A stretch of DNA of 64,000 bases from an uncultured Chloroflexia bacterium (GTDB taxonomy: Bacteria > Chloroflexota > Limnocylindria > Limnocylindrales > CSP1-4), in the NCBI GenBank assembly GCA_963777975.1, contig CAVZSO010000003.1, positions 9,111 through 73,110 on the forward strand, written 5' to 3'. Positions 10,996-17,397 of this stretch are shown piece by piece. Under the pieces are notes generated by a model. It did not search any database. It had not been told where the DNA came from and worked only from the letters and a program-made list of their open reading frames with translations. Numbering within the stretch: position 1 is the stretch's first letter; the number at the start of each line of letters is the position of its first letter. The position numbers were made by a program, and so were the translations under genes.

Positions 10996-12702
10996 TTGGC
11001 CACGGCTCGCTCATACGAGCGCGCATGGCTGGTCGGCGATCTGGTGGCCGGCCTCGTGCTGACGGCCGTGCTCGTGCCCGTCGGCATGGGCTATGCAGAG
11101 GCGTCCGGTCTGCCTGCCATCTACGGTCTCTACGCGACCATGATCCCGCTGGTCGCGTATGCCATCTTCGGCCCCAGCCGCATCCTCGTCCTCGGTCCCG
11201 ACTCATCGCTGGCCGCACTCATCGCGGCCACCATCCTGCCCCTCGCAGGCGGTGATACCGCCACCGCCGTCGCTCTGGCGGGCGGGCTGGCGGTGGTCGC
11301 CGGCCTCATGAGCCTGGGCGCGGGCCTGGCCAAGCTCGGCTTCATCACGGACCTGCTGTCGACGCCCATCCGGTACGGCTATCTGAACGGCATCGCGCTG
11401 ACGGTCCTCGTCGGGCAGCTGCCCAAGCTGTTCGGCTTCTCGACAGACGCCGACGGCCTGGTCGACGAGGTGCGGGCCTTCGTGCAGGGCGTGGCTGACG
11501 GCCTGACCAACCCCGTGGACCTGGCCATCGGGACGATCAGCATCGTCGTCATCCTGGGCTTCAAACGGTTCCTGCCGAAGGTACCCGGGGTCCTCATCGC
11601 GGTCGTGGCGACGACGGTCTTCGTGGCCGTCACCGGCGCGGTGTCGACGTGGAGCGTGGCGACGGTCGGTCCCCTGCCGCAGGGGCTGCCGCATCCAGCC
11701 CTGCCGGCGCTGCCGCTCGGCGACCTGGTGGTGATGATCACCGGTGGTGCCGCCATCGCGCTGGTCTCGATGGCCGACACGAGCGTCCTGTCGCGGATCC
11801 TGGCGGGACGCGCGGGCACGCGCCCTGATCCAAATCAGGAGCTGGTGGCGCTCGGCGCCGCCAACATCGCGACGGGATTCGTGCAGGGCTTTCCGATCAG
11901 CAGCAGCGGCTCGCGGACGCCCGTCGCCGAGCAGGCCGGGGCGCGGACCCAGCTGACCGGCATCGTTGGGGCAGCCGCCATCGCGGTCATGCTCGTCTTC
12001 GTCCCGGGCATCACCACGAACCTGCCGACCGCCGCCCTGGCGGCAGTGGTCATCACCGCCTGCCTGTCGCTGGTCGAGGTCCGCGGCCTCGTTCGGCTGT
12101 GGCGGATCCGGCCATCGGAGTTCCTGATCTCGATGATCTGCTTCCTGGGCGTGGCGGTCATCGGGGTCGTGCCCGGCATCTTCTTCTCGGTCGGGGTGGC
12201 CATCCTGGCTTTCCTCTGGCGGGCGTGGCGGCCGTACAGCGCGGTGCTCGGTCGCGTCGAGGGGATGAAGGGCTACCACGACACCGACCGGCATCCCGAA
12301 GCCCAACAGGTCCCGGGCCTCATCCTCTTCCGCTGGGACGCGCCGCTCTTCTTCGCCAATGCCGAGATGTTCAGGACGGCCGTCGAGGCGGCGATGGCCG
12401 AGTCGACGACGCCGGTCCGCTGGTTGGTGGTCGCTGCGGAGCCGGTGACCGACATCGACACGACGGCGGCCGACGTCGTCGACGCGCTCCAGGCCGAGCT
12501 CGAACGAGCCGGCGTCGAGTTCGCCTTCGCCGAGCTGAAAGGCCCGGTCAAGGACAGCCTGCGCCGTTACGGCCTCTTCGACCGCATCGACGAGCGGCGC
12601 TTCTACCCGACCGTGGGAGCCGCTGTCGACGCCTACCTCGAGGAGACTGGCGTCGAATTCGACGACTGGGAGGAACGCGCCTCAGTCGATGATCGTCGCT
12701 GA
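10996..12702 (+). CDS. SulP family anion transporter with STAS domain
   Basis: GDLVAGL...VPVGMGYA, GLYA, C-terminal STAS (FRWDAPLFFANAE, DIDTTAA); start uncertain. Confidence 0.93.
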   Translation: MATARSYERAWLVGDLVAGLVLTAVLVPVGMGYAEASGLPAIYGLYATMIPLVAYAIFGPSRILVLGPDSSLAALIAATILPLAGGDTATAVALAGGLAVVAGLMSLGAGLAKLGFITDLLSTPIRYGYLNGIALTVLVGQLPKLFGFSTDADGLVDEVRAFVQGVADGLTNPVDLAIGTISIVVILGFKRFLPKVPGVLIAVVATTVFVAVTGAVSTWSVATVGPLPQGLPHPALPALPLGDLVVMITGGAAIALVSMADTSVLSRILAGRAGTRPDPNQELVALGAANIATGFVQGFPISSSGSRTPVAEQAGARTQLTGIVGAAAIAVMLVFVPGITTNLPTAALAAVVITACLSLVEVRGLVRLWRIRPSEFLISMICFLGVAVIGVVPGIFFSVGVAILAFLWRAWRPYSAVLGRVEGMKGYHDTDRHPEAQQVPGLILFRWDAPLFFANAEMFRTAVEAAMAESTTPVRWLVVAAEPVTDIDTTAADVVDALQAELERAGVEFAFAELKGPVKDSLRRYGLFDRIDERRFYPTVGAAVDAYLEETGVEFDDWEERASVDDRR

Positions 12703-13981
12703 GGCCGGTCCGTCCAGGAAGTGCTCGCGTTGTCGCAGCGCTGAGAGCGGAACCAGCGCGACGCCCAGCAGCACGAAGCGTGGCGACGAACAGCCCGTCG
12801 ATACCACGCGCACTGGCGGCGAAACCACCGATCAACGAGCCGGTGATCTGGCCGATGGCCAGGAAGACGCTGTAGAGCCCCATGATCGCGCCGCGATCGG
12901 CAGGGAAGGCCTCGGAGATGTCCGCCAGCAGGCCGAGCGCGGCGGGCGTCGCTCCGGCCAGCACGAAGAGCCCGGCCGCTGCGCCGACGACGCACAGGAC
13001 CGCCAACCAGACGGCCACGCCGGCCAGGTGGTTGAGCGCCAGACCCGCGGCGACCATGCCGGCGCCGCCGAGGATGCCGTAGAGGATGATCGTCGTCCGG
13101 CGCATCGACTTGAAGCGATTGCCCCAGTAGATCAGGCCGGCGCCGAAGATGATGGCGATGACGATCGCGGCGACGGTGAATTCGAGCGTGTCGAAGCCAC
13201 GGTGCAGGAACTGGTCGGGAAACCTCGGATCGGTCCGCGCGAACTGGAAGATCGACTGGCTGAACCACAGCCCGATGGCGGCGTTGACCGCGATCCAGGT
13301 CGGAGCCAGGAGCATGACGTGGCTGCTGCGGACCAGGTCGCCGTAGCGTCGCCAGCCGGGGTGAGGCTCGGCCAGCAACTCCGGTTCGCCGCGCGGATCG
13401 GCGACCCCGTAACGGTAGATCAGGAACGACAAGCCGTAGATGCCGGCATTGACGAGGAACGCCACCACGCCGAGGGCGTCCCACATCGGTCGAGCGACGA
13501 TGATGCCGACGCCCAGGCCTGCCAGGGTCGCGGCCTCGAAGCGAGCCGACGACTTGCCTCGGAGGTCTTCGTCGCCGGCAGTGACGAGCGCGATGTAGCC
13601 GAGGATCGAGGGCACCGATGAGGCGGTCGAGGCGCCCTCGAGCGCGCGAGTGGCGGCGACCACGAGCAGGAAGACCAGGCTGGCCCCGACGAGGTTCGTG
13701 GCGTAGGCCGTGAGCACGACGGCGACGGCGCCGAAGATCGGGCCGTACTGCATCACCCGGTGATGGCCGATGCGATCGGAGAGCAACCCGAAGAGGGGCG
13801 ACAGGACCATCTCGGCGAGATAGAAGGTCGCCGCCAGGACGCCGATGGTGATGGGCCCGACTCCGGCCACCGAGCGATCCGCCAGGCTGGCCAGGTAGAC
13901 GCCCAGCAGCGCACCCGTCAGGCCGGTGCTGAAACGGAGCGTGAAGGTGCCGAGCAGCACTGCCCACAGGGAGCGATCCAC
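12689..13981 (-). CDS. MFS transporter (frameshift near 12780)
   Basis: GLLSDRIGHHRVM motif A, 12 TM pattern, DRGAIMGLYSVF; GTG start 6 nt after TACCCT. Confidence 0.88.
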
Positions 13982-14022
13982 CGATGCAGGGTACCGGGTC
14001 GACCGGCGGCTATGCTCCCCGG

Positions 14023-15022
14023 ATGCCCGACGACCCGACTCGACCGCCCGACGAGGTCAAGGACCTCGCGCATGCCCGCTCGGAGGCTCGCGCGGCCCGC
14101 GACTTCGCGACGGCGGACCGCCTCCGGGCAGCGATCGAGGCCGCCGGCTGGAAGGTGGTCGATCGGGGCGTCGACTCGAGCCTCGAGCCCGCGCATCCGC
14201 CAGATCGCACCGATGGTGCCCGCGTGCGCTATGGCTCCAGTGCCTCGGTGCCGTCACGGCTCGACGAGCCGCCCACGCGAGTCGCCAGCGTCATGCTGCT
14301 GGCCACGGACTGGCCCACCGACCTGGCTCGCGCGCTGGCCGGACTGCGGACGCACGTGCCGCCGGGGACCGAAGTCGTCATCGTGGCCGACGACCCGTCG
14401 AGGGAACAGGTCGAAGCCCTCGACGCGATGGAGCCGCTCGACGGGCAGGAGCCGGTCAGTGGATCGAGCGGAGGCCCGGAGATCGTCTGGACGAGTGCAC
14501 GCCTGGGCACTGCTGCAGCCCTCGACTGCGGCATCCGCCGCGCGCGTGGCGAGGTCGTCGTCCTGTTCGACACGAGCCTCGAGCCGACCGGCGACTTCGT
14601 CAGCCCCATGGTCGCGGTGCTCGAGGATCGCGAGCGTGGCCGTCGCCGGCGGCTGGGGCATCGTCTCCGATGACCTGCGCACGTTTCGCGATGCGCCGCC
14701 CGGTGAGGTGGATGCGATCGAGGGCTATTGCCTGGCATTCCGGCGAGCGGACTTCGTGGCTCGCGGCCCGCTCGACGAACGCTTCCGCTTCTACCGCAAC
14801 CTGGACATCTGGTGGAGCCTGGTCCTGCGCGATGAAGGCGAGGCGGCTGTCCCTCGCCGGGCAGTGCGGACGCAGCCGCTGCCGCTCGAGCGCCACGAGC
14901 ATCGCGGATACGCCAGCCTCCCGCCCGCCGAACGTGATCGGCTGAGCAAGCGCAACTTCTACCGCATCATCGACCGCTTCGGATCGCGACGCGACCTGCT
15001 GGTCGCGAACCGGGTCGTCTAG
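14023..15022 (+). CDS. GT2-family glycosyltransferase with an N-terminal CysRS C-terminal (anticodon-binding)-like domain; frameshift near 14630
   Basis: N-term ARSEARAARDFATADRLRAAIEAAGWKVVD matches the CysRS tail pattern; then VVIVADD, VVVLFDTS, IEGYCLAFRR, LDERFRFYRNLDIWWSL (GT-A fold). Confidence 0.8.
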
Positions 15023-16324
15023 CTCAGGTCCTCGCCGAAGCGCGCATCCGGCCGCGCGTCGGGTCCGCGGCCGCCGCATCTGCCGGGCACAGGCGTCGCC
15101 GACGCGGCCCCGGGCGAGGGCGATCGCCGTGCGGTGCCGACCAGGGTGCCGACGCCGATGACCGCCACCAGGGCGAAGATGGCGGCGACCTGGAGCAGGA
15201 TGCTGCGCGAGCTGGTCGTCGGCGGCGCTTGGCCAGGACGGGTGAATGAGCTGGCCAGGGTCGGCACGCGCGGCGGGATGGTCAGCCCGATCCACGCGCC
15301 CGCAAGCAGACCTCCGATGTGAGCGAAGTTGTCGATACCGACGCCGCCGCCGGCCAGGCCGAAGCCGATGACGAGGTTGATGACGATGAGCGCGCCGATC
15401 TGTGTCGCGATCGAGCGCGCCTGGCGATCCATGAGCGGATGGTGGATGCGCTGCGCGACGAAGAGGATGCCGAAGAGGCCGAAGATGGCCCCGCTGGCGC
15501 CGACGGCGTCGTTCGGCGTGATGACGTAGCTCAGCGTCGAGGCTGCCGCCGCGGTCAGCAGGTAGAAGAGGAGGAAGCGGACGGAGCCGTAGAGGCGCTC
15601 CACGATCGGCCCGACGAGGTAGAGCGCGTACATGTTGGAGAGCAGATGGATCGGGGACCCGCTGTCGTGCACGAGGACGACCGTCAGCGAGGCGATGGAG
15701 CTGGCCCTGCGCCACGAGGTCCTTCTGGAGCCCGAACAGCCCGAACCAGAGCGCCGCCGCCTGCTGATCGAGGAGCGCGCTGACGCCGATGCCCACCGTG
15801 ATGGCCAGGATGGTGTAGGTGACGTACGGGATGGGCGCCACACCGCTCCGCGAGCGACCGAAGGCGCGCGATGCCGCGCGCTGGTTGCCCTGCTCTTTCT
15901 GCAGCCAGCCGATGCGTGAGGCGATCTCTGCGCGTTCGGCCTGTGGCGCTCGTGAATCGGCCTGCTGATAGGCGCCCAGGGCACCCTTCAGGTCGTCGCG
16001 GCGAACCAGCTCGGCGGCCAGCCGCTTCCAGGCCAGCCAGGTGAGTGGCGTCTCGGGCGCCGCGACCGCCTGCCGCCAGGCATCGAGGGCCTGGTTCGCG
16101 TCGTCCAGCCGGTAGAAGCACTCGGCCAGGCCGAGCAGGCCGGCGACGTGGATCTCGGCGTCAGGATTGCCGACGCAACGGTAGTAGACGCCGAGCGCGG
16201 TCGAGTAGTCGCTCGCCTCCGCCAGCGCCTCGGCCTGTGCCAGCACGGCGAGCGCGGTCGGCCGATCGAGCGGGCCGGGTCGGTTGGGGTCGGCGCCGGA
16301 GCGCCCGGTGGTCGGGTCGGACAA
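15019..16324 (-). CDS. Rhomboid intramembrane serine protease with N-terminal TPR repeats (frameshift near 15690)
   Basis: TPR-like helices (GLLGLAECFYRLDD, GALGAYQQAD), then HLLSNMYALY, catalytic GASGAIFG and HIGGLLAG. Confidence 0.9.
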
Positions 16325-16468: not shown

Positions 16469-17397
16469 ATGGACGGCACTGCGCAGATCATCCTCGACGC
16501 CATCGTGCTGGTGGCGCTGATCGGCGCCATCGTCAGCGTCGTTCGGAGTAACAACGCTGCCGTCCGCAAGATGGGCGCCGTGGCCAGCGTGCTCCTCATC
16601 CTCGGGCTGGCGGCCCTGCTCAGCGCCGTCATCGTCTCCGCCGGCTCGGTCGGGGTCGTCACGGCCTTCGGCCAGGTCCAGCCCGAGACCCTGCCACCGG
16701 GCCTGCATTTCCGCCTGCCCTTCGTGAACGTCGTCCACCAGATCACGACCCGGGTCCAACCCCACCCGTTCGATGAGATCGACGCCGCCAGCTCCGAGTA
16801 TCAGCAGGTCAAATTGACGGGCGTCATGAACTACCACATCGACGGGCAGTTCGCCTCGGACCTCTATCAGCGGGTCGGCGACGACTTCGCGCCGAAGATC
16901 CTCGACCCCGCCTTCAACGACTACATCAAGACGGTCGTGCCCAAGTATCGGTGACCGAGATCCTCGGCAAGCGAGACGAGATCCGGCAGCGGGCAAAAGA
17001 GGACCTGCAGGCCAACCTCGCTCAGTACCACATCATCATCGACGACATCTACCTGGCCAACATCGCCTTCAGCCCCGAATACACGGCGGCCATCGAAGCC
17101 AAGCAGGTCGCTCAGCAACAGGTCCAGACGGAGAACCAGGTCCTCGCTCAGAAGCAGGTCCAGGCTCAGCAGGCCGTCGCAGTGGCGCATGGCGCGGCCC
17201 AGGCGATCGTCGAGACGGCGCGAGGTCAGTCAGAGGCCAATGACCTGCTCACCAAGTCGCTGACACCCGACCTCATCCAATACACGCTCATCCAGAAGCT
17301 TTCCCCGAGCATCCAGACGATCATCCTGCCGTCCGGCCAGCAGTTCATCCTCGACCCGAAGAGCCTCGTGGGACCCCAGGCGTCACCGCAACCGTAG
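16469..17397 (+). CDS. SPFH/prohibitin (band 7) family protein, frameshift near 16950
   Basis: GSVGVVTAFGQV, PGLHFRLPF, FSPEYTAAIEAKQVAQQ, ARGQSEAN; SD GGAGG. Confidence 0.92.

Follow-up and report, generated by a model that had tools for sequence, protein, structure and literature searches.

Gene structure and reading frame

The present analysis concerns a glycosyltransferase gene with a synthetase-type RNA-binding domain, located in a stretch of 64,000 nucleotides (hereafter, the window) from an uncultured Chloroflexia bacterium of the class Limnocylindria (GenBank assembly GCA_963777975.1, contig CAVZSO010000003.1, positions 9,111 to 73,110). As delimited with the help of intact relatives, the gene occupies positions 13984..15022 on the plus strand of the window and encodes, in this order, a domain similar to the C-terminal CysS_C domain of cysteinyl-tRNA synthetase (CysRS), a linker, and a glycosyltransferase (GT) domain of the GT-A fold. 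According to our analysis, the gene is the split-off, stand-alone half of a CysRS-transferase fusion that is common in Chloroflexota, and the motifs of its GT domain are kept or lost together with a second CysRS gene of the genome.

The gene starts with the ATG at 13984 or with that at 14023, the latter being used by the relatives P0002 and P0003, and its stop codon lies at 15020-15022. In the assembly, two plus-strand frames make up one protein: an open reading frame (ORF) extends from 13984 (or 14023) to 14673, and another frame continues as far as the stop codon. Intact relatives of 317-345 amino acids (aa), with 65-91% identity, span both frames unbroken and from end to end. A reading made earlier from the sequence alone (hereafter, the sequence-only reading) had noticed a frameshift near 14630. 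DNA alignment with the two closest relatives located it as a single extra C at position 14629 of the plus strand (GAT[C]GCGAGC), which is absent from both of them.

A frame that is broken in the assembly as given is what would be seen in a real pseudogene inactivated by a one-base insertion at 14629. However, neither half of the gene has any other stop, both match an intact relative at about 91% identity, and similar single one-base breaks were found in three other genes of the assembly. The adjacent, convergent gene for a TPR-rhomboid protease (15019..16324, minus strand) has a frameshift of its own at about 15688; the two parts of its product, on either side of the break, match a relative's intact protein at 98% and 94% identity. 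The SPFH/Band_7 gene (16469-17397, plus strand), in which one domain is spread over two adjoining ORFs (model positions 2-106 and 109-166), is broken at about 16951. Finally, the classical cysS gene on contig C11 has a one-base break (CCC[T]GAC) at about 187270, between the catalytic and the DALR/CysS_C parts. Because these three genes are broken likewise, we attribute the break in the window gene to an assembly indel error and consider the gene probably intact in the organism, while a genuine pseudogene appears distinctly improbable. The break in the SPFH gene is the third reading-frame break within 2.5 kb, which suggests an indel-rich stretch of the assembly. Programmed frameshifting was rejected, as the relatives are encoded in a single frame and have no slippery site, and the break is not conserved.

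The N-terminal anticodon-binding domain

Positions 14047..14169 (plus strand) encode a CysS_C-type anticodon-binding domain consisting of a helical hairpin and a beta hairpin, as identified by Pfam, profile, AlphaFold2 (AF2)/Foldseek and alignment evidence. In the protein that starts at 13984, residues 22-62 match the Pfam family PF23493 (CysS_C) with 17.2 bits (E = 0.005), which is under the gathering score of 23. The similarity is nevertheless real, because four further lines of evidence agree with it. First, PF23493 is matched at E < 0.01 by 27 of 28 relatives (best E = 9.6e-7), some of which carry a precomputed PF23493 match. Second, a profile of the N-terminal domains has CysRS as its top two PDB sequences (3tqo and 1li5, residues 415-452). 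Third, the AF2 model of the domain alone, with helices at 10-24 and 28-40 and strands at 43-48 and 51-56, has as its top two Foldseek matches in the PDB the CysRS chains 1u0b_B (root-mean-square deviation 1.3 Å over 46 columns, match probability 1.00) and 3sp1_B. Fourth, the domain is 49-53% identical to the C-termini of the CysRS paralogues of its own genome; as compared by eye over 40 residues, it is about equally similar to the paralogue of the HVGN type, described below, and to the classical CysRS. The N-terminal segment is thus homologous in sequence and fold to the C-terminal anticodon-binding domain of CysRS, as the sequence-only reading had proposed.

In the CysRS of Escherichia coli, G34 of tRNA-Cys is read through Arg427 and Asp436 and stacks on Trp432, while Arg423 takes part in a water network (PMC12684709, citing Hauenstein 2004); joint mutation of Arg427, Trp432, Asp436 and Arg439 changed the anticodon specificity of the enzyme (PMC13449415). 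The window protein has R32, R36, F41, D45, R48 and D60 as the equivalents of E. coli R423, R427, W432, D436, R439 and D451, respectively. In comparison with the C-terminal domain of known synthetases (PF23493; E. coli 1U0B, Coxiella 3TQO, Borrelia 3SP1), the helical and beta hairpins, the motif R..AR..(D/R)(W/F)..AD.LR...G..V.D and the G34-contact residues are shared. The differences are the N-terminal position of the domain, the absence of a synthetase catalytic domain, the sub-threshold Pfam score and a family-specific linker that follows the domain. This linker (14170..14277, plus strand) is conserved in the alignment of relatives, contains a second beta hairpin in the model and bears the motif DGxRVRYGSSxSVPSRL.

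The glycosyltransferase domain

The rest of the gene (14278..15019, plus strand, with the frame change at 14629) encodes a GT2/GT-A domain. It matches PF00535 (GT2) with 40.9 bits against a gathering score of 23.3, and the AF2 model (pLDDT 73, pTM 0.73) is a GT-A fold, soluble and with no membrane segment. Foldseek returned 238 PDB matches of the model at E <= 1e-3; every one of the 50 listed is a GT-A enzyme (GT2/GT27). The fold search that had been recommended for both domains gave CysRS for one and GT-A enzymes for the other. The AFRR/GxLDE core motifs and the Rossmann-like nucleotide-binding half are present. The closest solved sequence is that of PcManGT (6yv7; E = 7e-6), whose DAD aligns with DTS in the window protein (14569..14577, plus strand), so that the canonical DxD is replaced by DTS at this position. 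The Pfam scan found no PF01406, the class I CysRS catalytic domain with its HIGH/KMSKS motifs and zinc ligands, anywhere in the gene. Many relatives are nevertheless labelled cysteinyl-tRNA synthetase by JGI. These results agree with the sequence-only reading, which had described a GT-A/GT2 domain with DTS in place of DxD and neither a synthetase catalytic domain nor a transmembrane segment.

Three further motifs lie downstream on the plus strand. FYRNLD (14789..14806), at the position of the ‘ED’ catalytic-base motif of GT2 enzymes, is kept essentially only in genomes that keep the CysRS paralogue (counts are given below). RHEHRGY (14891..14911; H.HR) and SKRNFYR (14945..14965), the latter in a basic C-terminal helix, are common to the fused forms, where the second appears as SKKNY/F, and are lost together with the paralogue.

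The GT-A fold and the PF00535 match are shared with GT2 enzymes such as PcManGT (6YV7), SpsA (1QG8), the Leptospira structure 6P61 and WrtF (9OMK), and with the GT27 ppGalNAc-transferases. The window protein differs from them in DTS for DxD, the lack of a membrane anchor, the lack of a polysaccharide context and the presence of an RNA-binding domain derived from an aminoacyl-tRNA synthetase (aaRS).

Fusions and the second cysteinyl-tRNA synthetase

The gene family comprises 713 clusters at 50% identity (E <= 1e-10), and the gene is present in 81 of the 301 sampled Chloroflexota genomes. By tblastn, a relative is encoded in 448 candidate stretches of species-representative genomes, which had been found with two C-terminal peptide patterns of the Limnocylindria type. 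In many other lineages the whole module lies inside frames of 800-900 aa; at locus L027, for instance, an ORF of 841 aa encodes a complete CysRS with all motifs, followed by CysS_C, the linker and this GT domain. An architecture-restricted search yielded 673 such fusions, about 800-870 aa long, from Ktedonobacterales, Kouleothrix and others, whose only annotation is cysteine--tRNA ligase; the fused form also occurs in the family f69 of the window's own class. Genomes with a fusion have three PF01406 genes, including a separate CysRS-family gene with an open frame of about 400-420 aa; the fused CysRS is therefore an extra copy.

In Limnocylindria, the GT gene stands tail-to-tail with a cysS gene of the HVGN type, 520-530 aa long and with a CysS_C domain of its own, in 68 of 80 species. 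The genome of the window likewise has three PF01406 genes, namely HVGN-type paralogues on contigs C8 (66059-67639) and C9 (82222-83814), which are 95% identical, and the classical cysS on C11. The two paralogue copies either arose by recent duplication or stem from two strains that were merged in one bin. Both components of the split system are therefore found in this genome: a full-length module with DTSxE, FYRN(L/A)D, H.HR and (K/R)(K/R)NFYR, and a CysRS of the HVGN/HIGN type.

The Ktedonobacteria and Kouleothrix CysRS-GT2 fusions share with the window gene the module of CysS_C, linker and GT-A domain, the motifs DTSxE, FRFYR..D, H.HR and SK(K/R)N(F/Y), and the extra CysRS of the HVGN/HIGN type. 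They differ in that their module is the C-terminal part of a CysRS of 800-870 aa and has DNGSTD, whereas the window gene encodes a separate protein of 332-345 aa with VADxPS. The module is a widespread CysRS-linked architecture that combines two known kinds of component, a GT2 enzyme and an aaRS-derived tRNA-binding domain. This context of fusions, together with the dependence on a second CysRS described below, was the main element missing from the sequence-only reading.

Apart from cysS, no conserved neighbour was found beside the split or the fused forms in the loci examined. Of the four fused loci examined, three have Peptidase_S51 after the fusion gene. Two other arrangements were observed. 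In the family f3 (e.g., G009:C1:1411127-1419951), the GT gene is recurrently found at a distance of 8-20 kb from the classical cysS, with the HVGN-type paralogue far away. A Ktedonobacteria genome with a fusion also has a second, stand-alone CysS_C-GT-A gene (L032:3502-4449) with EAN for DTS, which follows genes resembling mannose-1-phosphate guanylyltransferase and gamma-glutamyltranspeptidase (both named by eye from the translations); therefore, one genome can carry both the fused and the free form.

Co-evolution of the glycosyltransferase motifs with the second CysRS

The dependence on the second CysRS was examined in the family f1, in which 31 GT genes (30 relatives and the window's own) were scored, the paralogue being defined as an HVGN-type gene with at least 69% identity to the C9 copy. 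FYRN(L)D was present in 12/12 genes from genomes with the paralogue and in 1/19 from genomes without it; the corresponding figures were 10/12 and 1/19 for H.HR, and 12/12 and 3/19 for (K/R)(K/R)NFYR. All three motifs together occurred in 10 of the 12 paralogue-keeping genomes, among them that of the window, and in none of the 19 others (p = 1.5e-6 by a Fisher test that disregards phylogeny). With the family f3 added, the contrast was 20/22 against 0/19.

The same contrast between genomes that kept and lost the paralogue recurs inside three genera: G253 against G088 in g3; G369, G327 and G357 against G261 and G124 in g4; and G221, G277 and G363 against G339 in g7. Because of this recurrence, we argue for repeated independent events. 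Two degenerate members retain the usual Limnocylindria synteny with cysS cleanly deleted, and the paralogue-less Limnocylindria have intact ORFs with decayed GT motifs. In all 41 scored genes (31 from f1 and 10 from f3), the anticodon-contact residues are intact.

As judged from these comparisons, the GT motifs depend on the CysRS paralogue. Since the motifs track the paralogue while the anticodon-contact residues persist, the catalytic-looking GT part would be needed only together with the second CysRS, and the tRNA-docking part always. Counts of PF01406 genes across the 301 Chloroflexota genomes were also considered as a phyletic profile. They proved too noisy, with only some candidates scored and MshC-like genes mixed in, and were replaced by the identity-based search for the paralogue within the class.

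Conservation of the two domains

Conservation was assessed across 323 full-length modules, of which 119 were fusions, 119 came from Limnocylindria and 85 represented other stand-alone clusters. At least 321 of the 323 keep the equivalents of R423, R427, D436 and D451, and 322 have an aromatic residue at position 432. At position 439, R or K occurs in every one of the 238 Limnocylindria and fused sequences and in 80 of the 85 other stand-alone representatives. Mean pairwise identity is 51% in the N-terminal domain and 37% in the GT domain.

In the GT domain, the window lineage and the 119 fused members show conservation at or near 100% for the donor-site residues D179, S181 and E183 and for the ‘ED’-site Asp. 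Within the DTS site of these two groups, D and S are invariant, and T is almost always kept (103/119 and 118/119). In the fusions, DNGSTD is canonical and is accompanied by DTSIE and an ‘ED’-position Asp; the Limnocylindria have VADxPS, DTSxE and FYRNLD, all near 100%. Conservation of the DTS site does not extend to the 85 other stand-alone lineages, where an acid is kept at the DxD site in 45 and the Asp at the ‘ED’ site in 44, with both lost in 26. Loss of the acid at one site is correlated with its loss at the other (odds ratio 3.7, p = 0.005, kinship ignored). Because many stand-alone relatives retain the anticodon reader despite having lost the donor or catalytic acids, the function common to the whole family cannot be glycosyl transfer. 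From this pattern of conservation, the common denominator of the family appears to be the anticodon reader, not the GT active site.

Genomic neighbourhood and related searches

The window copy is surrounded by genes for an AAA_16/TPR regulator, an ECF sigma factor, an aldehyde dehydrogenase, a SulP/STAS permease, an MFS transporter, a rhomboid protein, an SPFH protein, a TetR regulator, a cyclase and an ABC transporter. In comparison with the loci of relatives, no conserved neighbour was found around it. The divergently oriented MFS transporter gene next to it (12548..13981, minus strand, from the ORF annotation of the window) is not part of the system, and the rhomboid gene on the other side occupies, in the window and its closest relatives, the place that the cysS paralogue has in most Limnocylindria. 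The earlier remark that polysaccharide genes are absent nearby holds within about 8 kb of the gene. Two genes upstream lies the gene for a SulP sulfate permease with a STAS domain (10996-12702, plus strand), and a STAS gene is found at the same place in a relative's locus, L002. This neighbour may be linked to the supply of sulfur or cysteine.

No T-box or other Rfam family was found beside the GT or fusion genes at seven loci, and there were no PADLOC matches, so that a role in a defence system is not supported. The genome has one ordinary tRNA-Cys(GCA), with G34 and the anticodon loop CUGCAAA; a special second tRNA is therefore not present. The 3' 45 nucleotides of tRNA-Cys are copied, exactly or with 96% identity, at C3:3379-3423, which is 5.7 kb before the start of the window, and at C6:7100-7143, one of these half-copies lying 2 kb from the tRNA-Cys gene itself (C6:9202-9278). 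Similar half-copies occur in several other Chloroflexota genomes, and they resemble attachment-site repeats of elements that inserted at tRNA-Cys. A tRNA-Sec(UCA) gene was also found (C9:208094-208192), and because of its presence the organism probably uses selenocysteine.

The literature search, which included Chloroflexi and Ktedonobacter, found no link between CysRS and a glycosyltransferase; neither a GT partner of any aminoacyl-tRNA synthetase nor a bacterial tRNA glycosyltransferase was found in the searchable literature.

Proposed function and alternative explanations

We tentatively propose, at somewhat less than even confidence, that the window gene encodes a tRNA-Cys-docking GT-A enzyme that works together with the second CysRS. 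Elsewhere in Chloroflexota the system would be a single polypeptide, in which an extra CysRS of the HVGN/HIGN type is followed by its C-terminal anticodon-binding domain and then by the GT-A domain. In Limnocylindria it would be split, each half having its own copy of the anticodon-binding domain. On the grounds of homology and the strict conservation of residues, the N-terminal domain is predicted to dock on the GCA anticodon of tRNA-Cys through the residues by which CysRS reads G34, and the conserved linker would hold the GT-A domain beside the anticodon arm. The GT-A domain of the window lineage has a plausible donor site (VADxPS and DTSxE) and the three motifs that it has in common with the fusions (FYRNLD, H.HR and SKRNFYR). 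For this domain we infer the transfer of a group, most likely a glycosyl group from a nucleotide sugar, in a reaction that would require the second CysRS. The target would be the tRNA-Cys or Cys-tRNA-Cys handled by that synthetase.

Among the possible acceptors, a nucleoside in the anticodon arm of tRNA-Cys may be considered, though we regard it as doubtful. The cysteinyl moiety, or another ligand bound together with the tRNA, seems quite improbable. The anticodon arm is favoured over the aminoacyl group on geometry only, because in the fusions the GT domain is attached to the anticodon-binding end and is remote from the aminoacylation site. The most far-reaching version of the proposal would be the first bacterial tRNA-directed glycosyltransferase, in which a borrowed synthetase domain guides the enzyme to tRNA-Cys, a sugar is attached either to an anticodon-arm nucleoside or to the cysteine carried by Cys-tRNA-Cys, the second CysRS charges or hands over the tRNA, and lineages without the paralogue keep tRNA binding only. 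We consider this version rather unlikely.

Several observations weigh against the proposed tRNA-Cys-docking enzyme. Both halves of the split system read the same anticodon and so cannot dock on one tRNA simultaneously. In the window's own genome, the paralogue genes (C8 and C9) are not adjacent to the GT gene (C3). No feature of the tRNA-Cys anticodon arm tracks the gene in 21 genomes with it and 20 without it; the loop CUGCAAA is found in 21/21 and 19/20 of them, respectively. Even the best-conserved members have DTS where DxD is expected, and the window lineage departs from the canonical form of the first nucleotide-binding motif, with VADxPS in place of the DNGSTD of the fusions. As for the co-evolution, the Fisher tests leave phylogeny out of account, four of the 19 genomes counted as paralogue-less gave no match to the CysRS query and may be incomplete, and the loss of motifs could mean the loss of a protein-protein interface and not of catalysis. 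Finally, both RNA binding and catalysis are deduced from sequence comparison and models.

One alternative is that the protein is a non-catalytic tRNA-Cys-binding factor, whose GT-A part is a pseudo-enzyme serving as an RNA-binding or ligand-sensing body. Its role would be to sequester tRNA-Cys, to protect or deliver it, or to tune the second CysRS. The substitution of DTS for DxD would fit this explanation, as would the Arg/Lys-rich character of the conserved motifs, the intact ORFs with decayed GT motifs of the paralogue-less Limnocylindria, and the erosion of both acidic sites in the 85 stand-alone representatives, among which the anticodon contacts are invariant. On the other hand, the near-complete conservation of D179, S181, E183 and the ‘ED’ Asp in the window lineage and the 119 fusions, along with the canonical DNGSTD of the latter, is a pattern like that of an active site, and the correlated loss of acids at the two sites would be expected from former joint catalysis. 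We therefore see a pseudo-enzyme as plausible for the decayed lineages and less so for the window lineage, and on the whole give it a fairly low probability.

A second alternative, to which we assign a similarly low probability, is an ordinary GT that acts on a small molecule or a protein. It might make, for example, a cysteine glycoside or a low-molecular-weight thiol together with the CysRS paralogue, and its CysS_C domain would then be a dock for the partner or a relic of the fusion. Fusion or adjacency to a cysteine-activating enzyme is in line with this, as is the dependence of the GT motifs on the paralogue; the best NCBIfam match is the small-molecule enzyme MftF, far under its cut-off, and the nucleoside glycosyltransferase AvpGT is among the Foldseek matches. 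There is also a precedent, since MshC is a CysRS paralogue by established knowledge and makes mycothiol together with MshA. However, the paralogue considered here retains its full anticodon-binding domain, unlike MshC, which is without one, and the fusion-bearing genomes also have a separate CysRS-family gene. No deacetylase, acetyltransferase or other pathway gene is conserved beside either form. Moreover, a relic or a dock is unlikely to keep the G34-contact residues invariant in 323 sequences or to be duplicated in both halves of the system. A thiol pathway of the MshA/MshC type was rejected as the principal explanation, as the GT belongs to GT2 and not to GT4, the partner CysRS keeps its CysS_C domain and no LmbE or GNAT partner is conserved nearby.

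The proposed tRNA-Cys-docking enzyme may be compared with known systems of similar logic. LysX of Mycobacterium tuberculosis is a LysRS paralogue fused to the MprF lysyl-transferase, and GCN2 has a HisRS-like tRNA-binding domain on a kinase. In these cases, too, the linkage of a synthetase, or of a domain taken from one, to a second enzyme allows a particular tRNA or aminoacyl-tRNA to be channelled or sensed; the folds and the chemistry of the partners are unrelated to those discussed here. The vertebrate enzymes QTGAL (B3GNTL1) and QTMAN act on queuosine-34 of tRNA-Tyr and tRNA-Asp. The window protein would likewise be a GT acting on a nucleoside of the anticodon loop, whereas tRNA-Cys has G34 and QTGAL and QTMAN are without an aaRS-derived targeting domain. 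No specific relationship to these two enzymes in sequence or fold turned up, a direct comparison not having been run. Since tRNA-Cys(GCA) carries no queuosine, the parallel with B3GNTL1 drawn in the sequence-only reading is reduced to an analogy. Its central suggestion of an RNA-directed GT stands in part: a CysRS anticodon domain is indeed joined to a GT-A enzyme, and binding of tRNA-Cys is supported by the invariant G34 residues and by the fusion with, or adjacency to, CysRS, while RNA would be no more than a possible acceptor of a sugar. Its second option, a GT that is coupled to or regulated by RNA binding, may also apply.

Implications

The module occurs in hundreds of Chloroflexota species, including abundant soil lineages, and is tied to a second CysRS by fusion, gene order and co-evolution. 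The series of orthologues from intact to decayed provides ready-made natural controls for the study of this group. If the protein is non-catalytic, it would represent a new kind of tRNA-specific binding factor derived from an enzyme fold. If tRNA-Cys or Cys-tRNA-Cys is modified, this would be a new RNA or aminoacyl modification, and it would explain why these bacteria have two or three CysRS genes.

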